A DNA stretch of 64,000 bases from the IMG/VR virus record IMGVR_UViG_3300042381_000885; one strand, written 5' to 3'. This DNA is from a virus. Taxonomy: Duplodnaviria; Heunggongvirae; Uroviricota; Caudoviricetes. The position numbers were made by a program, and so were the translations under genes. A model generated the notes under the pieces. It had not been told where the DNA came from and did no database searches. It saw only the letters and a program-made list of their open reading frames with translations. This document shows positions 3,380-45,329 of the stretch, in pieces. How positions within the stretch are numbered: the first letter of the stretch is position 1; each line of letters begins with the position of its first letter.

Positions 3380-5071
3380 ATGAAACAAGAGATAATAAAA
3401 TTTCAGCATGAAGAGTACCATACTATTATTCATAAGAGTTCAAACCCTATTGATTATAAGGAACCTCGAACAATTCCTACCGATATTTGGTTGGATGAGG
3501 ATGATTTATTTGGTTGCAATAATAAACCTGAAGAAAAACCGGATTCAAGATATTCGGCCAAGAAACCATTATATATTGTAGACAAAATTAATAACGATGA
3601 ACAAGTCTATGTTGAAAATTACGGTAATCCAATTTGCACTGTTAGGAAGGATTATGTTATGGTTGTTATTGAAAGGGATGAGGATAAGATTGCGATGAAG
3701 TTATTTTATGGAGGTAAAGTAAGAACCAAAGGGACCAAATACTTTAAAGTTAATAAAAATGTTGAATATATTACCGTTAATGTAAAGACTGGTGATGTGT
3801 ATAGTGGATACTTGAAAGGATTCCAAAAGAAGAGAAATTATAGTAAAAAAATTCGTCGAAATTATTTTATGGAATCTTCGTTGGATTGGATGAAAAGTAA
3901 AATACGGAACTATTTAAATTTATATAAAATTGAAAACTCGACCAGTATTGCAACTGACCTTGTCAATAGATTTATAGATGAAATAGATAAAAACCGATAT
4001 GAAGATTTGACTATTGATGATAGACTATTCAAATTTTATTTGGATAAGAGAGGTATTAAATATCCTAATAATTTTGGGTCTTATATGAATCATTTAATTG
4101 GACCATCAATTAGAAAAAAATTAAAAAAGAACGGGGGTAAACTAGTTGACGCCTTCATGGATGAATTTAAATTACAAGGTAAAGTTTTAAAAAAATCATT
4201 ACATGAATGTAAAAGATTAAATCTTGAAACATATAATTACGCTAAAGATATGTTTGGTGATGATAGATTAAATCAAGACCCCGGAGTAATAGTTTCATTA
4301 CTAGAAACAACTAATCATGTTAATAACCAACAATCGGGAACCTCATTAAAAGAACTAATGATGAATAGTGAGTTGGATAAATACTATAAGGCGTTTAAAG
4401 AAGTATTTGTAAATTTAAATATGGACACTTATACTTTGGCAGACCATGTTAGAATGTATTTGGAATTACGAAGATATGGTTTGGATGTAAAATGGATGAC
4501 AGATGGAACAGATAGAGATGCTTTCCATAATGAACATCTTGATTGGACGGATAAACTATCTCATTATAAAAATGGTACTTATACTAGAATTTATCCGGAA
4601 ATACTCCATAAGTTATTAACTGAAAAGATTGGAGATTGTGTACCAGTATTATTAACGACATCTGAAGAATATAATGAAGAAAGTTTAACACAATCAAATT
4701 GTGTTAAAGGATATGTGGGAAGACCCGAATCAATTATTGTTTCATTAAGAAATGGTGATGAGCGTGCGACTATCGAATACCAAGTTAAATTAATTGATGA
4801 AAAAATTACAATTAATCGAGTTCAATCTTTAGGTAAGCGTAATCAAACCTTAACTACTGATTGGGATGATGTTATGTTGAGTTTAGATAAAATAATGTTA
4901 TCATTCATTAAAGATAAAAATTTTGAATTGGTTAAGGTTATTAAAGAAAATGGTATGGGGATGAAGATTAGTTCTGATTCTAAATGGGTGTTGACTAGTT
5001 GGGGGTCAACTCAATTAGAATGGGAAAATCCAAGAATATCTAATAATGATAGTTTTTTATGGTTTATTTAA
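3380..5071 (+). CDS. PcfJ-like domain protein
   Basis: C-terminal LLTTSEEYNEESLTQSNCVKGY...IVSLR...RATIEY...VQSLGKRN resembles the PcfJ pattern. Confidence 0.6.
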   Translation: MKQEIIKFQHEEYHTIIHKSSNPIDYKEPRTIPTDIWLDEDDLFGCNNKPEEKPDSRYSAKKPLYIVDKINNDEQVYVENYGNPICTVRKDYVMVVIERDEDKIAMKLFYGGKVRTKGTKYFKVNKNVEYITVNVKTGDVYSGYLKGFQKKRNYSKKIRRNYFMESSLDWMKSKIRNYLNLYKIENSTSIATDLVNRFIDEIDKNRYEDLTIDDRLFKFYLDKRGIKYPNNFGSYMNHLIGPSIRKKLKKNGGKLVDAFMDEFKLQGKVLKKSLHECKRLNLETYNYAKDMFGDDRLNQDPGVIVSLLETTNHVNNQQSGTSLKELMMNSELDKYYKAFKEVFVNLNMDTYTLADHVRMYLELRRYGLDVKWMTDGTDRDAFHNEHLDWTDKLSHYKNGTYTRIYPEILHKLLTEKIGDCVPVLLTTSEEYNEESLTQSNCVKGYVGRPESIIVSLRNGDERATIEYQVKLIDEKITINRVQSLGKRNQTLTTDWDDVMLSLDKIMLSFIKDKNFELVKVIKENGMGMKISSDSKWVLTSWGSTQLEWENPRISNNDSFLWFI

Positions 5072-5441: not shown

Positions 5442-6110
5442 ATGAGCGTAGAAAAAGGGAGAATATATAAAATAACAAATAAAGAAAATGGTTTAATTTA
5501 TATAGGTTGTACTATATCGTCATTAGATAAAAGGTTTAAGGAACATTTATCAAGATGTTTTACCTCAAATTATAAATCAAAGTTATATAACTCAATGAAA
5601 AAATATGGTCAAGAAAATTTTACCATAGAATTGATTGAAGAATGTGATTTTAATTTTATTTACGAAACAGAAAAAAAATATATAGACCAATATAATTCAT
5701 ATAATAATGGGTTAAACGCTACAATAGGTGGTGAAGGTTGTTTAGGGTATGTTCACTCTCCGGAAATGAGGGTTAAAATATCTGAGGCAGTTAAAAATGG
5801 TAATTCTCATAAAGGTAAAACATATGAGGAACTATATGGTGATAAAGCAGATGAACAACGAGAAAAACGACGATTATCAGTTAAAAAAGGTTGGGTGTCA
5901 ATTTCTGATGATGAAAAAGAAAAACGAGTTAATAAAGGAAAAGAAACTAAACAAAAAAACTCTAAGTATGGTGTTGAATTAGTTAAAGAGATTAAACAAA
6001 AAATAAATGAAGGGTTAAAAGTTAAGCAATTAAAAGAACTTTACCCTCAAGTCAGAGAAAATTTTTTCTATGAATTAAAAAATGGTAGAAGTTGGTCTAA
6101 TATAAATTAA
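5442..6110 (+). CDS. GIY-YIG homing endonuclease with NUMOD3-like DNA-binding motif
   Basis: RIYKITNKENGLIYIG, RF.EH, E..YI..YNS...GLN and HSPEMRVKIS. Confidence 0.88.
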   Translation: MSVEKGRIYKITNKENGLIYIGCTISSLDKRFKEHLSRCFTSNYKSKLYNSMKKYGQENFTIELIEECDFNFIYETEKKYIDQYNSYNNGLNATIGGEGCLGYVHSPEMRVKISEAVKNGNSHKGKTYEELYGDKADEQREKRRLSVKKGWVSISDDEKEKRVNKGKETKQKNSKYGVELVKEIKQKINEGLKVKQLKELYPQVRENFFYELKNGRSWSNIN

Positions 6111-6114
6111 AACT

Positions 6115-6435
6115 ATGGAAATTACACAAGAAGAATTAAAACAAAAAATTAAAAATGGGGATAAACTTATTATTGACTTTTGGGCAAAATTTTGCGGACC
6201 GTGCAAAGTTATGAAACCGGCTTTTGATAAAGTATCTGAGGAACTAAGAGAAGGTAACTCGGAAGTTCAGTTATATACCTTAGATGTGGAAGAGAATCGA
6301 GATTTAGCAGTAGAATTAGGTGTTAGAGCCGTACCAACATTAAAATCTTTTTCAAACGGGAAAGAAGTCTATTCTCAACCGGGAATGAAAATGGAATCTC
6401 AAATTAAACAATTAGTTGAAGATTTGTTGAATTAA
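6115..6435 (+). CDS. trxA: thioredoxin
   Basis: IIDFWAKFCGPCK active site and the VRAVPT cis-Pro motif. Confidence 0.9.
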   Translation: MEITQEELKQKIKNGDKLIIDFWAKFCGPCKVMKPAFDKVSEELREGNSEVQLYTLDVEENRDLAVELGVRAVPTLKSFSNGKEVYSQPGMKMESQIKQLVEDLLN

Positions 6436-17698: not shown

Positions 17699-17792
17699 AG
17701 TCAGGTTGGATACAAGGTCGGTTCGAGTCCGATGGAAGGTTATGGATGACGGGTAGCTCCCTGTAGAGAGGTTCGATTCCTCTCCTGACTAC
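17699..17792 (+). tRNA. tRNA-like element (pseudo-tRNA, no assignable anticodon)
   Basis: Acceptor AGTCAGG/CCTGACT+A and T-arm AGAGG-TTCGATT-CCTCT. A second T-loop-like hairpin TCGG-TTCGAGT-CCGA sits where the D-arm should be. Confidence 0.55.
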
Positions 17793-17806
17793 AAAGATTA
17801 AATTAA

Positions 17807-18088
17807 ATGGAATTACCAACGGATTACACAAAACTAGCGCCTAAACAAAGAAGAGAGGTTAGGATACAATACATAAAGGAACAGAACAATCTGTGTATGT
17901 ATTGCGGGGAGACTTTAGATGAGGTTGCACCCAATAGAATAACAGGTAAACCGATTAATTGGAAGTTGTTCCCGGAGGGATTTTTACAACATCCGATACA
18001 TCTTCAACATTGTCATAAAACAAATATGACCGAAGGTGCGGTACACGCTTATTGTAATGCTGTTTTATGGCAATATGAGGGAAGATAA
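17807..18088 (+). CDS. small zinc-binding His-Me finger (endonuclease VII/HNH-like) protein
   Basis: CMYCG...HLQHCH...GAVHAYCN. Confidence 0.6.
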   Translation: MELPTDYTKLAPKQRREVRIQYIKEQNNLCMYCGETLDEVAPNRITGKPINWKLFPEGFLQHPIHLQHCHKTNMTEGAVHAYCNAVLWQYEGR

Positions 18089-18159
18089 AAAAAAACAAGA
18101 ATTTAGTTGTTATATTAAAAAAAGTATTATCTTTGTGCCATAAAAATAAATAAAAAATT

Positions 18160-18675
18160 ATGATTTCAGAAGAACAATTTTTGTTAGGTTTGATGATTAC
18201 ATTATCAATTGGTTTAGTGGTTTTATTCAAAAAGTTAGATACAGATGATGAATTTCCATCATTCTTACGTTGGTCTTGTGCGATTGTTAGTTCATTGTTA
18301 TTAATAATTGCCATCTTCCCGATTGTTAGATGGATTGATTCTGATAGTACTGAGTATTACTCACGTAGAGTTAACATCCAATCAATTAAGAATAGTGATG
18401 AGGTTGGAGGACATTTTATGTTGGGTTGTGGTAATATAGAACAGACAGAGTATTACTACTACTATTACAAATCAGTGGAAGGTTATGTTAGAGGTAAGAA
18501 ACCGGTTGATGAGACTTTTATTGTTGAAACAACAAATGATAAACCACACGTTGAGGTTAAGATAACTCATTATGAATCAAAGTCGGGGTTATTTAGATAT
18601 TTGGATGTGGAAAATAGTAAATATAAAATAATTGTACCCAAAGGTACTGTTGTTAATAGATTTGAGGTATACTAA
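18160..18675 (+). CDS. membrane protein, 2 predicted TM helices
   Basis: Two N-terminal hydrophobic segments. TATCTTTG promoter at 18128. Confidence 0.65.
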   Translation: MISEEQFLLGLMITLSIGLVVLFKKLDTDDEFPSFLRWSCAIVSSLLLIIAIFPIVRWIDSDSTEYYSRRVNIQSIKNSDEVGGHFMLGCGNIEQTEYYYYYYKSVEGYVRGKKPVDETFIVETTNDKPHVEVKITHYESKSGLFRYLDVENSKYKIIVPKGTVVNRFEVY

Positions 18676-18683
18676 ACTCAGAT

Positions 18684-18758
18684 AGTCATGATTATAAGGT
18701 CGAGCTCTTTTAGAGTGGATGGGACTTATGTCTGTGGGTTCGAGTCCCACCATGACTA
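18684..18758 (+). tRNA. tRNA-like element, top half intact and D/anticodon arms degenerate
   Basis: AGTCATG/CATGACT+A acceptor and GTGGG-TTCGAGT-CCCAC T-arm, 75 nt. Confidence 0.5.
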
Positions 18759-18894
18759 CAAGGGGTGTTGGTAGCTCCTGACGGGTTTAGACGTGTAACT
18801 TTCCCTCCAACAACCAACCTTGTAATTATTTACACGCAATTGGATTAATATAGAAACAACTCTTCGTAAGGTTATCAGATTAAACGTTACAAAC

Positions 18895-19038
18895 AGTCAG
18901 GTGGCGGAAAGCTTATAATGTGAGAAATCCTGTTATAACGAGGTAGACGCTCACAGGTTGGTATTGTAAAAGAGGGTTTAACCTCCATCTCCACGTTTTA
19001 GTGGTTATACCTTACAGGTTCGAGTCCTGTCCTGACTA
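18895..19038 (+). tRNA. tRNA-Leu-like element with D-loop insertion and expanded anticodon/variable region
   Basis: AGTCAGG-TG-GCGGAA...GGTAGACGC D-arm halves split by an insert of about 30 nt. ACAGG-TTCGAGT-CCTGT T-arm and CCTGACT acceptor. Confidence 0.55.
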
Positions 19039-19052
19039 CTAAACAAAACAAT

Positions 19053-19289
19053 ATGCCACACACAGAAACATTTTTTGTATCGACAAAGAGTAATAAAGTT
19101 AAACCTGTTAATGAAAACCCAACTTCATACTTTAATCCCGATTCGAAAAGTAAAAATTTAGGAAAAGCGAAGTATATTATTGAGGTATTTGGTTATAATC
19201 ATCAAAAAGTTGCTGAGGAAATCCGTGATGTTATTGATGAAAAACGATTAAGTGATAAATTATTTCGTATAAGAGTAGAAACAAGATAA
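19053..19289 (+). CDS. hypothetical protein
   Basis: 78-aa ORF between tRNA-like genes. Confidence 0.5.
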   Translation: MPHTETFFVSTKSNKVKPVNENPTSYFNPDSKSKNLGKAKYIIEVFGYNHQKVAEEIRDVIDEKRLSDKLFRIRVETR

Positions 19290-19294
19290 ACAAT

Positions 19295-19381
19295 AGTCAG
19301 GTGGCGGAATTGGAGAGACGCAACTCTATTAAGGAGTGGAGATGAAATAAACTCATACAGGTTCGAATCCTGTCCTGACTA
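19295..19381 (+). tRNA. tRNA-Leu-type (class II), anticodon probably TAA but arm is non-canonical; no encoded CCA
   Basis: AGTCAGG-TG-GCGGAATTGGAGAGACGC, long variable arm, ACAGG-TTCGAAT-CCTGT, CCTGACT-A. Confidence 0.65.
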
Positions 19382-19656
19382 CGAATTAAAAAAAAAAATA
19401 ACAAAGGTATTGACTTTTGGTGATGTTATGAGATATTTATTATCTCACGGTTCGAGAGAACCAAAACACCCCAACAAAAGTTTCATAAAAAATTTGATAG
19501 TAACAAAACTATTACTTACCTTTGTGAAACATATATCCCACAGATGTATGTTCGAGAGAATTTATGTATGTGGGTTTTTTTTTTGAAAAAAGTTTGATTG
19601 GTGTTTGGATATTAAAAATAAAGTATTATCTTTGTACTCGAATTAAAACAAAAAAC

Positions 19657-20007
19657 ATGAAAGACATATTATTGGTAATTGTATTGAGATTATTCTTTTT
19701 CACTGTAATAGTATCTTTAGTAAGTTGTAGTCCTGACTATATTCCATCATCTGATGAGGTACAACACACCATTCATATATCAAATGAAGGTAAACCTTTT
19801 GAGTATTGGTTGAATAAAGTTCACTACGATAGTGAGGGACAAGAGATAAAAGTAATAGTGGATTCAGGTACTCAAATTACTCTCAGTGCTATAGTTCCGG
19901 TTATTAACGGAGTTTCAATTAGTCCTAACTTTCAAGTATACCAAGATAGTAGGATTGTGGAGTTAAAAAAAGTTACAATAGGGTTCTTTTGGTATAAAGT
20001 AAAATAA
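19657..20007 (+). CDS. putative lipoprotein
   Basis: Signal peptide ending LVSC. Promoter TTTG-N19-TATCTTTG at 19604-19634. Confidence 0.6.
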   Translation: MKDILLVIVLRLFFFTVIVSLVSCSPDYIPSSDEVQHTIHISNEGKPFEYWLNKVHYDSEGQEIKVIVDSGTQITLSAIVPVINGVSISPNFQVYQDSRIVELKKVTIGFFWYKVK

Positions 20008-20098
20008 TTAAAAAAAAAAAGTGTTAAAGTTTTTGACAAATCAAAATAAAAGTTTTACCTTTGTCGAAGAAATAAAGTTCTTAAAAATATTGAAAGAT

Positions 20099-20177
20099 TA
20101 GTGTGGGTGTTGTGTCGAGGTTTCAAGTCCCTCCGGATTCATCCGTAGCTCAGATGGTAGAGCATACACCCACATTA
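20099..20177 (+). ncRNA. circularly permuted tRNA mimic (YrlA/Y RNA-like)
   Basis: Order is T-arm (20117-20133), capped acceptor hairpin CGGA-TTCA-TCCG, TA, D-arm GCTC-AGATGGTA-GAGC, all closed by a 12-bp terminal stem. Confidence 0.7.
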
Positions 20178-20201
20178 TAATATATTCTAATTACAAGTTT
20201 A

Positions 20202-20322
20202 GGTCCGTAGGGCTGTAATGGTATGTGAGGAAAATGACTACGGGACAAACATACAACTGTACGAAATAAAGCAGAAGTCCTTCGCATTCAAAGTATTACT
20301 GTAAAATGTAATCGCCATTACA
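20202..20322 (+). ncRNA. pseudoknotted structured RNA of unknown class
   Basis: GTCCGTAG/CTACGGGAC and TGTAATGG/CCATTACA helices cross each other. Confidence 0.45.
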
Positions 20323-20337
20323 AGTTAGAATTAAATT

Positions 20338-20428
20338 GGTATTGTAGCTCAGTGGGGGATTTATCTTCCTTGGTAGAGCAGGAGTCTCGAAAGTCTCTGT
20401 GTCGCAGGTTCGAACCCCGCCGATACCA
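20338..20428 (+). tRNA. atypical tRNA, loop CT-CGA-AA, with a hairpin inserted in the D-loop
   Basis: GGTATTG/CGATACC+A acceptor, GCTC/GAGC D-stem, GCAGG-TTCGAAC-CCCGC T-arm, weak anticodon stem. Confidence 0.6.
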
Positions 20429-20434
20429 CAAATA

Positions 20435-21577: not shown

Positions 21578-22018
21578 ATGAAGAAGTCGATAAACATAAT
21601 TAATAAGAAAGCCAGGTTTGAATATGAATTCCTCCAAACAGATATTGTGGGAATTTCACTATTTGGTAGCGAGGTCAAATCCATCCGTCAGGGAAAAGTT
21701 TCTATCTCCGAAGGGTACTGTTACTTCAAGGACGGTGAGTTATTTGTTAAGGGGATGAATATCTCCGACTATGGGTTTGGTTCATTCCATGAGACTGTCA
21801 GGGACCGTAAACTACTATTGAAAAGAAAAGAGTTGAATAGTTTGGAGTCAAAACTTATGAATGGTTTAACCATCGTTCCTTACCGGGTCTTCATCAATGA
21901 GAAGGGATTGATTAAAATGGAGATTGCTCTTGCCAAAGGTAAAAAGATTCATGATAAGAAAAATTCAATAAAAGAGAGAGATATTGACCGGGATATAAAA
22001 AGAGAAATAAATCGATAA
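21578..22018 (+). CDS. smpB: SsrA-binding protein SmpB
   Basis: NKKARFEY, GISLFGSEVKSIR, RDRKLLL, GLTIVP, KMEIALAKGKKIHDKK. ATG at 21578 after TATCTTTG. Confidence 0.95.
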   Translation: MKKSINIINKKARFEYEFLQTDIVGISLFGSEVKSIRQGKVSISEGYCYFKDGELFVKGMNISDYGFGSFHETVRDRKLLLKRKELNSLESKLMNGLTIVPYRVFINEKGLIKMEIALAKGKKIHDKKNSIKERDIDRDIKREINR

Positions 22019-22072
22019 AATGTTTGGTAGAATGAAAATAATAACTATCTTTGTACTCACAAAACGAAAGAT

Positions 22073-22348
22073 ATGAACCTACCTCAACACAATATTAAGA
22101 TTCAACACGAAAAATTTGGTGTATTAGTAAATGAAACATTCATGAACGCCACTCAATTCAAGATATTTTTGAGTATGATTCAAGGATGTATTGAACTTAA
22201 GAATGATTTAACATTCTTTAATGGTTCCGACTTTTTAGTTCATATTCCTCACAAACATCTGGTTGAGTCGATTATTACAACTAATGTGGATGCGTCATTA
22301 ACATTGGCAGAACATTTAATACAAAAATCAAAATTAGAAACAGCGTAA
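22073..22348 (+). CDS. hypothetical protein
   Basis: 91-aa ORF after a TTTG-N19-TATCTTTG promoter (22023-22053). Confidence 0.7.
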   Translation: MNLPQHNIKIQHEKFGVLVNETFMNATQFKIFLSMIQGCIELKNDLTFFNGSDFLVHIPHKHLVESIITTNVDASLTLAEHLIQKSKLETA

Positions 22349-31671: not shown

Positions 31672-31731
31672 ATGACAAAAAAAACCTTCGGTGATAAAGG
31701 TTTTTTTTTTTGTTTGAATATTGAGGTTTAA

Positions 31732-32067
31732 TTAAAAATTACCTCCTGGAACATTAATTGTCTCAAGTATTGAAACATTTAATTTAGTGGCAATTAACTC
31801 TAATAAATCCTCATCGTTGGCCCCCCAATCACTTAATTCTTCACTTGTCATGGTTATTTGACTACTTGTTTCGTTATTAAACCTCACGATTACCTCGTTT
31901 TCATTTAATACTATTGAACCAAATTGAATTTGGAAGTTTGTTGATGGAGAGTTTAAGATATATGGTCTTGCAATTGCAGTCATATAATCTAAATTTTTAG
32001 TTGTTGAACTAAAAGGAGTTGTCTCAACAATTTTAATTGCCGGTGGATTGATTTTTGCTATTAACAT
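31732..32067 (-). CDS. hypothetical protein
   Basis: 111-aa ORF. Confidence 0.6.
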   Translation of the reverse strand: MLIAKINPPAIKIVETTPFSSTTKNLDYMTAIARPYILNSPSTNFQIQFGSIVLNENEVIVRFNNETSSQITMTSEELSDWGANDEDLLELIATKLNVSILETINVPGGNF

Positions 32068-32180
32068 AATATTTGTGTTTTTTGTTTAAATATCGTTATT
32101 ATCGATATAATATAAATACTTCGTCTTAACTTAATTTGTAATTTAAATTAATTTTTTATACTTTTGTAAAAAAAAATATT

Positions 32181-32399
32181 ATGGAAGAAATGTCAAAAAA
32201 TATGATGAAATATGCGGAGATTGTTTCAGTTTTAGAACAGAACAATATTTCGTGGAATGGATTGGTTGATGGTTTGGTAGAAACTTATCACAATGATAAT
32301 CCAGAGTATAAACTGAAACAAAATCCAGATTGGTGGAATATTGGAAGTAAAGAAGAAGTTATTGATAGTGTTATATCAACATTCTCAAAACAAAAATAA
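32181..32399 (+). CDS. cassette gene 1, hypothetical
   Basis: Followed by attC-like site 1. Confidence 0.65.
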   Translation: MEEMSKNMMKYAEIVSVLEQNNISWNGLVDGLVETYHNDNPEYKLKQNPDWWNIGSKEEVIDSVISTFSKQK

Positions 32400-32403
32400 T
32401 ATT

Positions 32404-32461
32404 ACTTATAACGGTTGCAAATAAAACATCGTTTTAATGTGTTTTATTTGTTGTTATAAGT
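32404..32461 (+). mobile_element. attC-like site 1
   Basis: ACTTATAAC-ggttg-CAAATAAAACA-tcgttttaatg-TGTTTTATTTG-tt-GTTATAAGT. Confidence 0.65.
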
Positions 32462-32498
32462 ATGTATTATTTTTTAAAAAAATTTAATGAAGTAAAAA

Positions 32499-32843
32499 AT
32501 GGAAACAATAATAGAAGAAGGTATTTGGGACATTAAACAAAAACTACCATTAAGAAGGGTTGTATTTACTTGTGATGGAAAAAAAATCACACGAAATTTG
32601 TTTATTTTAGGTGATTCAGAGAATCGAAACTCTAAAGTAGATATTATTGATTTAGAGAAAGTGGAAATTGAAATTAGTTTAACTAAAATAAATAAATTAT
32701 CAACAACTGAAATAGGTGAATATTTAAAAAAGAAAGCGGAGGTTTTTGAACCAATTACTTGTTTTGAACGGAATATCAGTAATGAAATTCCATTTTTTAC
32801 TTCACCTATAATAACAAAAAATAATATTACTTATAACGACTGA
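32499..32843 (+). CDS. cassette gene 2, hypothetical
   Basis: Lies between attC-like sites 1 and 2. Confidence 0.65.
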   Translation: METIIEEGIWDIKQKLPLRRVVFTCDGKKITRNLFILGDSENRNSKVDIIDLEKVEIEISLTKINKLSTTEIGEYLKKKAEVFEPITCFERNISNEIPFFTSPIITKNNITYND

Positions 32844-32885
32844 GAATATGTGTTCGTTTTAATGACACATATTCTTTGTTATATT
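32829..32885 (+). mobile_element. attC-like site 2
   Basis: ACTTATAAC-gactg-AGAATATGTGT-tcgttttaatg-ACACATATTCT-tt-GTTATATT. Confidence 0.65.
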
Positions 32886-32907
32886 TAGTATCAAAAATTT
32901 TATACAA

Positions 32908-33150
32908 ATGAAAAAATGTAAATGTATTAAAGAATCTTCTTGGTTTTTAATTGATGATTCCTTTGACGAAAATTCTAAATTAAATGGTGGTAGATTTTCT
33001 TTTCAAATGGGTAGTGAATATGATTATTTTGAAGAGGTAACTCCATTTGGAAATGGTATGTCAGTTATACATCCTAAACACGGAAAAGAAAATCCTACTG
33101 GTTTTGATGAAAGAAGATTCTACGAACACTTTGAAATAATAAACTCATAA
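32908..33150 (+). CDS. cassette gene 3, hypothetical
   Basis: Lies between attC-like sites 2 and 3. Confidence 0.65.
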   Translation: MKKCKCIKESSWFLIDDSFDENSKLNGGRFSFQMGSEYDYFEEVTPFGNGMSVIHPKHGKENPTGFDERRFYEHFEIINS

Positions 33151-33164
33151 AATTTTTGATATTG

Positions 33165-33220
33165 AATATAACGTCCGATGATAAACAATCGTTTTAATGT
33201 TGTTTATCATTTGTTAGGTT
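33165..33220 (+). mobile_element. attC-like site 3
   Basis: AATATAAC-gtccg-ATGATAAACAA-tcgttttaatg-TTGTTTATCAT-tt-GTTAGGTT. Confidence 0.65.
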
Positions 33221-33258
33221 TTGTCATTAATTTGTTTTACCTTATAAAAAAAAATATT

Positions 33259-33810
33259 ATGGAAGAATGGTGTATTGAACAACATAGAAGTACGAATCAC
33301 ATGTATTCGGAGTGTCGGGTTGTTAAAATATTCAACGAATTAATTCGACATAAATTATCACCGGTTTTTGGTGATAATTTATTAGATTGTAAATTAATTG
33401 AGCGTGGATATGAATATCGATATGATTTACTATTCATTTTCCGAGGAGTCTATAATAATCCGACAATACAATTGGAAAGTGTTTTAGAAACCTGTGATAT
33501 GTTGTTTGATTGGGTTGACTTAAGAGACATGGTTAATCTTAGTATTGTTATTATAACTAATGGAAGAAATCAACATTTTAGTTATTTTGAGATAATGGAT
33601 GGAATAGGTGAGAGTGGTAGGGGTTATCAGCATCATATGATAATTAGACATCCAAAATACCGTCAGTATCGGGAATGGAAAACTAATAGAGAAATAGAGG
33701 AAGGAATGAAACGAGCTTGGGAGATGGAGATAGATAGAGTTACAAGAAATGTTAATATACAACAATCAAGAATTACGGAATCAAGAAAGAAGAAGTTTTT
33801 ATTTTGGTAA
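33259..33810 (+). CDS. hypothetical protein
   Basis: ATG at 33259; the track start at 33178 runs through the attC-like site. Confidence 0.6.
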   Translation: MEEWCIEQHRSTNHMYSECRVVKIFNELIRHKLSPVFGDNLLDCKLIERGYEYRYDLLFIFRGVYNNPTIQLESVLETCDMLFDWVDLRDMVNLSIVIITNGRNQHFSYFEIMDGIGESGRGYQHHMIIRHPKYRQYREWKTNREIEEGMKRAWEMEIDRVTRNVNIQQSRITESRKKKFLFW

Positions 33811-44977: not shown

Positions 44978-45190
44978 TTTTTTTATTTTTAACGTTGTTT
45001 TAAAAATTCTTCTATTGCCTCTTCGGTATTGTCAAAAACATACCATACTTCTTGCCCGCAATCTCTCGCCCAGTCAATAAATTCCTCTAATAATTCTTTT
45101 GTTTCCATTTTTTTTATTTTAGTTTACTAATTACTCTTGTTTTATATACGAAGTCGTTTTTTGCCCTCGTTAATTATAATTGCCGTACTT

Positions 45191-45269
45191 CTGGCAACAA
45201 TCGTTTGTACTAATCGGCAGAATATACGCAACCGCATAGCCGATTAGTACAAGCGACAAACGTTACCAG
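45191..45269 (-). mobile_element. solitary attC-like site
   Basis: Minus strand reads CTGGTAAC-gtttg-18-bp stem (one mismatch)-20-nt loop-stem-tt-GTTGCCAG. Confidence 0.55.
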
Positions 45270-45329
45270 GAATACTACGATAGCATATCTCTAACAGCAA
45301 TCATTCCTCTATAGTGATGGTCTTGAGCT

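Follow-up and report, generated by a model that had tools for sequence, protein, structure and literature searches.

How does a row of small genes joined by hairpins of one and the same build come to stand in a phage genome, and what could have assembled it? The question arises in the 64,000-nucleotide stretch of DNA analysed here (the window), which belongs to an uncultivated lake-water phage of ~315 kb (Caudoviricetes; IMG/VR record IMGVR_UViG_3300042381_000885). A first-pass annotation had read three small genes and their hairpins, together with the repeats around them, as an integron-like array of gene cassettes akin to a cluster of attC sites lacking integron-integrases (CALIN). Comparison with related sites in other viruses leads us to a similar view: with a probability of about two in three, the row is an orphaned array belonging to an integron-like cassette system that phages carry, and no recombinase is encoded near it. 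The integron-like, CALIN-like reading gains support from stem covariation, a circular-cassette signature, the absence of the row from relatives, the recurrence of one unit elsewhere, and the linkage of such sites to a tyrosine recombinase. This support does not extend to membership in the integron family itself, since the linked enzyme lacks the integrase-specific insertion, extrahelical bases are missing from the sites, and the units are oriented towards the recombinase gene. The window holds only the sites of the system; in the wider family all of the features of a hairpin-cassette array are present, namely TAAC...GTTA joints, inverted boxes, co-orientation, a position upstream of the recombinase gene, and an attI-like junction.

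Three hairpin sites of one plan

The three elements lie where attC-like sites of one architecture had been proposed, and they share one plan: (A/T)TATAAC, a 5-nt G-N3-G spacer, perfect 11-bp arms enclosing the loop TCGTTTTAATG, TT, and GTTA. The pattern TATAAC-N16-loop occurs three times in the window and not once in 100 shuffles, and a hairpin scanner that ignores the loop sequence returned sites 1-3 as its sole matches in 64 kb (shuffles, 0-1). The sites and the genes between them, the latter as open reading frames (ORFs), are as follows.

32404-32461, plus strand: site 1, with box ACTTATAAC, spacer GGTTG, arms CAAATAAAACA/TGTTTTATTTG, loop TCGTTTTAATG, TT and box GTTATAAGT
32829-32885, plus strand: site 2, with box ACTTATAAC, spacer GACTG, arms AGAATATGTGT/ACACATATTCT, loop TCGTTTTAATG, TT and box GTTATATT
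33165-33221, plus strand: site 3, with box AATATAAC, spacer GTCCG, arms ATGATAAACAA/TTGTTTATCAT, loop TCGTTTTAATG, TT and GTTAGGTTT
32181-32399, plus strand: c1, 72 aa, with the end module TCAAAACAAAAATAA TATTACTTATAAC and no upstream opening box
32413-32837, plus strand: unit c2, 425 nt, comprising hairpin 1, box GTTATAAGT, a leader, the c2 ORF and the inverted box ACTTATAAC
32499-32843, plus strand: c2 ORF, 114 aa, from the ORF list
32838-33172, plus strand: unit c3, 335 nt, comprising hairpin 2, box GTTATATT, a leader, the c3 ORF and the inverted box AATATAAC
32908-33150, plus strand: c3 ORF, 80 aa, from the ORF list

A site family with covarying stems

The same loop recurs widely in viruses. 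More than 116 loci in IMG/VR matched AAC-N16-loop, and the 11-bp stem was present in 81 of 147 loop matches. After further loci had been added, the alignment comprised 106 distinct sites with 29 stem variants, the arms of site 3 being the commonest. In this alignment 98.6% of the stem cells of the inner helix are paired, all 11 pairs have changed on both sides, and the observed covariation was reached in none of 500 shuffles; when the partner was slid by one to three columns, pairing was lost. The statement that the stems differ in sequence yet pair perfectly is thereby borne out well beyond the window. One-sided or G-U changes amount to only 0-2 per pair (1166 stem cells). An RNA helix would tolerate such changes, and palindrome pairing on both DNA strands would not; their near absence therefore argues for a constraint on the DNA, with both strands kept palindromic. 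AAC and GTT are invariant in 106/106 sites, as are nine loop positions.

The sites fold into an 11-bp inner stem beyond a 5/2-nt internal loop, and outside TAAC/GTTA the two flanks of a site pair with each other in only about half of the cases. The boxes read TTATAAC, ATATAAC, GTTATAA and GTTAGGT and do not conform to the RYYYAAC/GTTRRRY consensus; the stems are perfect and contain no extrahelical bases. Both deviations had already been pointed out for the window and hold in the sites at large. The stems are AT-rich, have an 11-nt loop and lack a T-run, and are in these respects unlike terminators, of which genuine GC-rich examples with T-runs occur near the block. A scan for sigma-70 promoters and terminators, with a model poorly suited to the host type, made no terminator call at the hairpins. 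On their 3' side, the sites carry a TAnnTTTG box in 27/107 flanks (7/107 upstream), with start codons 30-50 nt further on and an enrichment of -7-type boxes, and the 3' flanks probably also act as promoters for the following gene.

This family, referred to below as family A, is essentially viral. When one genome per prokaryote species was searched, the stem was found in 7 of the 120 matches listed, all of them on short contigs of metagenome-assembled genomes in Bacteroidota-type bins.

Further families have longer tips or loops. Hairpins in which the TAAC and TTGTTA boundaries are kept and the interiors differ were noticed in L093 (reverse; ~3530, 4085, 4880 and 5705), L235, L263, L208 and L212, e.g., TAAC TCGTTTATTTGTCCAG... 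with a ATACATCA/TGATGTAT hairpin, TAAC GGTTG GGTGTATAT... with loops of ~60 nt, and TAAC GTTTCGCAGCTTGGCGA... We also observed mini-hairpins of reversed polarity, GTTAnnnnn, TCGTTTTAATG, nnnnnTAAC, in which nothing but the family-A loop, and hence no gene, separates the two boxes of a unit. They occur in L060 (~4740-4800, minus strand), L048, L084, L206 (~9940), L208 and L221, with loose ends at window position 33167 in runs X1 and X20, and some directly adjoin the attI-like junction described below. These structures may be empty cassettes.

Inverted boxes as a probable trace of circular units

The first-pass annotation had noted that the sequence after each GTT complements the box of the next site, and both pairs are real: GTTATAAGT after hairpin 1 with ACTTATAAC before hairpin 2 (10 nt), and GTTATATT after hairpin 2 with AATATAAC before hairpin 3 (8 nt). 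As sites 1 and 2 have the same 5' box, the first pair cannot separate a complement to the next site from one to the site itself, and only the pair between sites 2 and 3 is discriminating within the window.

It is the family-wide statistic on inverted copies that carries the claim of a cassette signature. For 56/101 sites, the 9-nt 3' flank recurs downstream as an exact inverted copy at a distance of 88-1254 nt, and for 9/102 such a copy is found upstream; shuffling of the flanks among sites gave 11.2 ± 2.8 (maximum 20), so that the proposed signature of circular cassettes proves significant across the family. The inverted copy is followed by another TAAC↓G site (↓ marks the breakpoint), of family A or of the longer-loop families, or by a recombinase-proximal junction. 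In every short single-gene interval, 8-10 nt of the 3' flank of the first site complement the 5' box of the site that follows; the two flanks of one and the same site show no more complementarity than flanks paired at random. The downstream inverted copies define the unit as a gene between two inverted boxes whose sequence varies from unit to unit, which is what a circular molecule opened at its one self-complementary site would leave behind. When the junction of a circularised c3 was folded as single-stranded DNA, the predicted outer stem had 8 bp, compared with 6 bp and 4 bp in the parent array sites.

The array had been described as three small genes, each followed by such an element. No inverted partner of GTTAGGTTT, the flank of site 3, was found downstream, and c1 has an end box only, which leaves c2 and c3 as the complete units.

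A tyrosine recombinase and an attI-like junction in relatives

A search of site-rich contigs for PF00589 led to a tyrosine recombinase of 268 aa encoded among the sites. We compared 80 loci encoding its relatives with control loci of the same phage group containing a CCA-enzyme gene (1.01 Mb). The recombinase loci hold 56 family-A sites, all on the recombinase strand, 54 of them upstream of its gene and 34 within 2 kb; the control loci hold none. A loop-independent scan gave a similar picture, with 116 co-oriented sites and 1 reversed, 111 upstream, and 5 sites in the controls. A site lies within 3 kb upstream of the recombinase in 30/35 eligible loci, and sites and unit genes all point towards the recombinase gene.

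Almost every recombinase start codon is preceded, at 40-55 nt, by a hairpin-less junction of the form ...TAAC↓TA(T/G)nATATAT(A/C)nAC, and the DNA to its left is unrelated between loci. In L231 and L232, the junction and the start of the recombinase are identical, and the last units differ, the split falling exactly at TAAC↓. At this end of the array the last unit keeps only its TAAC box. On these sequence comparisons, we regard the TAAC↓TAnnATATAT junction as a putative analogue of attI. A resemblance of the loop to CGTTTTAAAG before some recombinase starts was confined to one subclade and was dismissed as coincidence.

The enzyme itself belongs to the Xer/IntI branch. Model scores were best for archaeal XerA (184 bits against a cut-off of 220), followed by XerD and integron-integrase, all of them below the cut-offs, and the protein aligns end to end with Pyrococcus abyssi XerA (4a8e, E 1.4e-37). 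Its residues 21-180 and 210-267 align with 18-181 and 259-316 of VchIntIA; between these blocks it has 29 residues where VchIntIA has 77, so that the IntI-specific insertion (I2 helix) is absent. The family is abundant in metagenomes, where its JGI name is XerD. One unit of a recombinase-linked array (L204, ~5520-6290) looked by eye like an N6/N4 DNA methyltransferase, with a DLPYG motif.

Breakpoints between related arrays

Comparison of the loci shows the mobile unit to be a single small gene between short inverted boxes, GTTAnnnnn...gene...nnnnnTAAC, and such units are joined by hairpin joints made up of the G-N3-G spacer, the 11-bp arms, the loop and TT. Site pairs with homologous upstream genes lose their similarity right after TAAC, the spacer differing in 4/5, and L016 (7952) and L235 (8249) share an identical 50 nt up to TAAC, after which spacer and stem differ. 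Rare stem variants go with the downstream flank (14% versus 1.9%) and never with the upstream flank. The c2 unit recurs in L286 (81% identity) with gene and both boxes kept and with different joints, following site and neighbours. Breakpoints thus lie at both TAAC↓ and ↓GTTA; that both strands of the bulge-free palindromes are usable would be a speculative explanation. The layout in which each gene is followed by a site is seen, as had been claimed; the assignment of each site to the gene before it is not established, given breakpoints at both boxes. A crossover inside the conserved loop, as at a classical duplex core site, was considered and rejected, because similarity ends at TAAC and does not extend to the arms, and arms of mixed type hardly ever occur.

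The same flanks as those of c3 enclose unrelated genes in L093 and in lake metagenome contigs, and flank homology around unrelated genes runs into the first (MKK) and last (NS-stop) codons. A copy of c1 with 92% identity is found in L093 in a different context, and the end module of c1 also follows unrelated genes. The 3' half of site 2 together with its leader is 100% identical to a half-site in L093. Two half-sites were noticed in that locus (reverse, ~5190 and ~6574), one consisting of 5' box, spacer and 5' arm and the other of 3' arm and flank; the latter matches window positions 32861-32916 and abuts the stop codon of a long gene. The 3' flank of site 3 is of a type carried by many IMG/VR loci, with an 86% match in an unrelated 462-kb phage (L001, LR756500.1).

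An accessory and orphan row

The following features surround the row or bear on its status in the window.

31732-32067, minus strand: p5, a 111-aa ORF from the ORF list, within the block missing from relatives
32133-32166, plus strand: promoter-like element TTTG-N20-TACTTTTG, judged from sequence only, with TACTTTTG at 32159-32166
32167-32189, plus strand: copy 1 of a 23-nt direct repeat, an A-rich leader and ATGGAAGAA, the first three codons of c1
33213-33244, plus strand: conserved 3' flank of site 3, the commonest flank type, which ends TAccTTTG in other phages
33245-33267, plus strand: copy 2 of the 23-nt repeat, a leader and the first three codons of gX
33259-33810, plus strand: gX, 183 aa, with ~19 extra N-terminal residues beginning in the 23-mer
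22019-22072, no strand: empty recombinase-module locus, which in the window holds only a stop codon, a promoter and the next gene
45188-45278, minus strand: a fourth site, of another family, with TAAC, GTTTG, 18-bp arms with one mismatch, a 20-nt loop, TT and GTTG

Gene order at this place is not fixed among relatives. The closest ones have p2-p3-p4-CCA enzyme or p2-gX-CCA enzyme, and the place taken in the window by p5 (minus strand), c1, c2 and c3 is occupied there by a GC-rich terminator of the ordinary kind and a TAtcTTTG promoter. The block is absent from 80 syntenic loci, none of which has a family-A site within 7 kb or a p5 homolog at the locus. The gene gX is a resident just upstream of the CCA-enzyme gene in some relatives; its homolog in L137 (60%) starts MSKIVKIFNEL and lacks the upstream hairpin. 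An accessory row explains the three ORFans that interrupt the otherwise conserved gene order of the window. Searches of Pfam and PHROG families gave no match for c1, c2, c3, gX or p5. A two-way intrinsic terminator (A-run, AACCTT...AAGGTT, T-run) was noticed at 31678-31711, between p4 and the convergent p5; its position is the left boundary of the block missing from relatives.

The row is bracketed by the 23-mer TAAAAAAAAATATTATGGAAGAA, exact at 32167 and 33245, as the first-pass annotation had it; no third copy was found in the window, even with 3 mismatches (0.01 expected). This repeat consists of leader and codons, and looks like a trace of homologous recombination, which we would assign to a PeSL-like layer (defined below) outside the site-specific system. 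The element TTTG-N20-TACTTTTG upstream of the row presumably corresponds to the -33/-7 promoter form of Bacteroidota, and we take it to be a putative promoter.

Since three co-oriented sites, attC-like though not canonical attC, have no recombinase within at least 30 kb on either side, the row appears to be an orphan, CALIN-like array. No TAAC↓TAnnATATAT junction above chance was found in the window. The recombinase module itself is present or absent at a clean locus: in relative 3300044638_006592, which has a CCA-enzyme gene and a recombinase, an array and the recombinase, together a module of ~6 kb, stand between homologs of the window genes at 21578-22018 and 22073-22348. A 219-kb phage contig (88% complete by CheckV), which contains L093, has sites and no PF00589 match, which indicates that orphan rows are not rare. 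The flanks of the fourth site are self-complementary but for one mismatch, as expected for a site without past flank exchange.

The row was intact in at least 24 lake metagenome runs from 2020-2024. Contigs end at the hairpins, and over site 3 with its flank the depth is 5-15 fold higher; the joint at site 3 is therefore a high-copy repeat common to many genomes of the community. The alternative joints seen in four runs have sides of no more than 31 nt and come from other contexts that share the repeats.

Weighing the alternatives

A reading that we consider rather unlikely sees in the row a set of regulatory modules like the promoter-early stem-loop (PeSL) elements of T4-type phages, in which a stem-loop, a promoter and a leader precede small early genes; such modules would be shuffled by homologous recombination, and the recombinase would be incidental. 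It is favoured by the flanks, leaders, and first and last codons common to unrelated genes, by the TAnnTTTG boxes with start codons 30-50 nt on, by a swap between L203 and L204 whose right end lies in the leader, and by the exact leader repeat around the block. The commonest joint and its flank, moreover, form a repeat of at least 50 nt in high copy in the community, which would suffice for phage recombination, and mini-circles of PeSLs provide a precedent (PMC2839356). Homologous exchange between direct repeats, however, does not create inverted boxes that are specific to a unit and yet complementary, nor would it be expected to give strict co-orientation, an upstream position and a conserved junction at one recombinase family, or breakpoints at a 4-nt TAAC box despite differing adjacent stems. 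The hairpins differ as well. PeSL stems are G/C-rich with G-T pairs, act as strong terminators and stand before most ORFans at ~50 per genome (PMC2839356), whereas here 3-4 sites occur in 64 kb full of small genes, and their stems are AT-rich, close on an 11-nt loop, lack a T-run and contain hardly any G-U pairs.

That the hairpins are signals in RNA only, serving processing, stability or translational control, perhaps with a loop-binding protein, and that their link to variable genes is secondary, seems to us quite improbable. An invariant loop on covarying stems is typical of RNA hairpins recognised by proteins, and every site lies between co-directional genes, on their coding strand; the scarcity of G-U and one-sided changes noted above, by contrast, is hard to reconcile with such a role. 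Rfam returned nothing over the region beyond a sub-threshold chance match to OrzO-P. DNA breakpoints, half-sites and presence/absence differences fall exactly at the boxes, and other site families share the boxes while their loops are entirely different. Even less credible is a miniature transposon, with terminal inverted repeats or of the IS200/IS605 hairpin type, mobilised by a transposase elsewhere. Inverted repeats of 8-10 nt do surround each gene, and sub-terminal hairpins next to a short, cleavage-like TAAC box recall single-strand transposons; but ends bound by a transposase are conserved and these boxes vary between units, the units stand in co-oriented, hairpin-joined rows rather than scattered, and it is a tyrosine recombinase, not a transposase, whose position co-varies with that of the sites. 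On these three grounds we rejected it. No target duplications and no Y1/HUH gene turned up in passing, without a dedicated search.

Several results also weigh against the orphan cassette array that we favour. The link between recombinase and sites is a correlation, and no recombinase of this family was found in the window by tblastn or profile search (best E 0.22), in agreement with the earlier statement that the window holds no integrase. Site pairs with similar downstream flanks have the same stem at a frequency of 0.50 and those with similar upstream flanks at 0.46, against a baseline of 0.30; with core and flank so weakly linked, a single fixed crossover point as in integrons is insufficient. 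L203 and L204 share a hairpin and a downstream gene (99% identical) and differ in the type of 3' flank, homology restarting at TTTGTAAAAAA...ATTATGGAA, in the promoter or leader, which constitutes a third junction class. Such leader-level junctions, the 23-mer of the window among them, indicate that homologous recombination is also at work, and flank homology that reaches into codons is not what simple cassette movement predicts. Nor does the reading assign a role to the invariant 11-nt loop of family A. Finally, in the four lake runs compared, the row was identical from 2020 to 2024 with no cassette-level variant, in contigs to which rare circles would be invisible.

A proposed mechanism

The orphan-array reading can be worked out as follows. 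In a circular unit the two boxes would pair and, together with the hairpin, form one long imperfect stem-loop; its outer stem, 5/2-nt internal loop, inner stem and loop would follow the plan of a folded attC site. The association and the breakpoints suggest that the 268-aa Xer/IntI-like recombinase recombines such folded single-stranded sites with each other and also with the TAAC↓TAnnATATAT junction before its own gene, cutting at the TAAC box, so that new units would enter beside the recombinase. That the sites recombine is something we infer from their sequences. In the window, hairpin 3 and its promoter-type flank are fused to the resident gX through the 23-nt leader repeat. As the window has neither a recombinase nor an attI-like junction, movement of the row would need a recombinase elsewhere in the 315-kb genome or in a co-infecting relative, or else ordinary homologous recombination between the repeated leaders and joints.

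More tentatively, and with somewhat less than an even chance in our estimate, Bacteroidota jumbo phages of lakes may share a communal pool of single-gene cassettes through an analogue of the integron that works with an I2-less Xer-like enzyme on folded single-stranded hairpins. Either strand would be usable, the palindromes being perfect; orphan rows would be serviced in trans at co-infection; and cassettes would arise from ordinary phage genes and head and tail modules.

Comparison with known systems

Like integrons and CALINs, the phage arrays are rows of single-gene units separated by imperfect palindromes with invariant AAC...GTT boxes, and the sites share with attC a fold in which an unpaired spacer separates the outer from the inner stem and the tip is variable. 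As in integrons, each site is followed by a flank complementary to the next site's box, as a circular cassette would leave it, and a recombinase of the Xer/IntI branch is encoded beside the array, its gene accompanied by a primary site that lacks a hairpin; orphan arrays without a recombinase have their counterpart in CALINs. The differences are just as clear. The phage recombinase, of 268 aa, does not have the IntI-specific insertion, which is regarded as the innovation that made recombination of single strands possible (PMC7790495). Extrahelical bases are absent from the perfect stems, and the boxes depart from the RYYYAAC/GTTRRRY consensus. Integron cassettes are mostly promoterless and are read away from intI from a common Pc, whereas the phage units point towards the recombinase gene, seemingly with promoters of their own. 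The phage junction differs from attI in sequence and in polarity relative to the genes, breakpoints fall at both boxes, and the host elements are jumbo phages of lytic type, not bacterial chromosomes. CALINs have been described in a few virulent phages by Qi et al. 2023 (PMC9892861), who used canonical attC models and found recombination by IntI1; their CALIN phage MW202573 is small (34.6 kb), and no arrays with a phage Xer-like recombinase were described there. We found no published description of such a phage system of hairpin cassettes and an Xer-like recombinase in the literature searched.

With the PeSLs of T4-type phages (Arbiol et al. 2010, PMC2839356), the row shares a repeated intergenic stem-loop and promoter before small ORFans in plastic regions, insertions, deletions and replacements between relatives that are bounded by modules, and circular intermediates, proposed or seen; the leader-level junctions resemble PeSL exchange. 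Unlike the sites described here, PeSLs have no dedicated recombinase, conserved cleavage box or inverted flanks for each gene. The resemblance to Xer/dif systems (XerC/D, archaeal XerA) lies in the recombinase, XerA-like from end to end, and in the 11-bp arms, which have the length of dif half-sites. The arms of dif, however, are conserved in sequence, act as duplex DNA and enclose a spacer of 6-8 bp; the phage arms vary freely and yet remain complementary, their centre has 11 nt or far more, and they occur in rows that bound genes.

Possible origin of the cassettes and wider meaning

As to how cassettes are made, c2 suggests an origin from ordinary genes and head and tail modules. In its more distant homologs (59-68% identity, 108 aa), the gene is an ordinary one, closely packed among its neighbours and with no site; its relative in L286 has the boxes; and in L287 the boxes are decayed and the following hairpin is absent. 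The A-run of c2 in the window is one base shorter than in the 108-aa homologs, so that the reading frame continues past the end box and stops at a TGA within the spacer. Modules of the end type, e.g., TCAAAACAAAAATAATATTACTTATAAC, are found behind genes that are unrelated to one another, and on sequence grounds genes seem to have been slotted between ready-made ends. Tail modules of ~30 nt that run into the last codons of unrelated genes (ending SKQK-stop or NS-stop) were noticed in the window (32384-32412 and 33134-33172) and in L231, L229, L232, L016, L263 and L244; head modules extend into the first codons (MEE, MKK).

Integrons count as a bacterial invention, and their recombination of single strands is taken to require a domain found only in IntI. 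If the proposed system is real, cassette capture by folded DNA evolved, or persists, outside the IntI framework, and it would challenge the accepted picture in three ways, with an Xer-like enzyme lacking I2, with perfect hairpins and with cassettes that carry their own promoters, all within the same cassette logic. Such a system would help to account for the extreme mosaicism that jumbo phages show among their small accessory genes, and it would make the question of cassette making tractable, because the same head and tail modules are found on unrelated genes and on a gene that is resident elsewhere.

Two minor observations concern other repeats and genes. The 462-kb phage L001, which carries one degenerate family-A site, has an intergenic repeat of its own, CTGCAGGTATATA...GTAAAATTAGTA.AAA.TTAA, after small genes (~2780-2830 and ~3845-3900). 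In the window, at 17699-20429, ARAGORN reported two tRNA-Pro(TGG) genes of excessive length (92-94 nt) and a tRNA-like gene whose anticodon has 4 nt.

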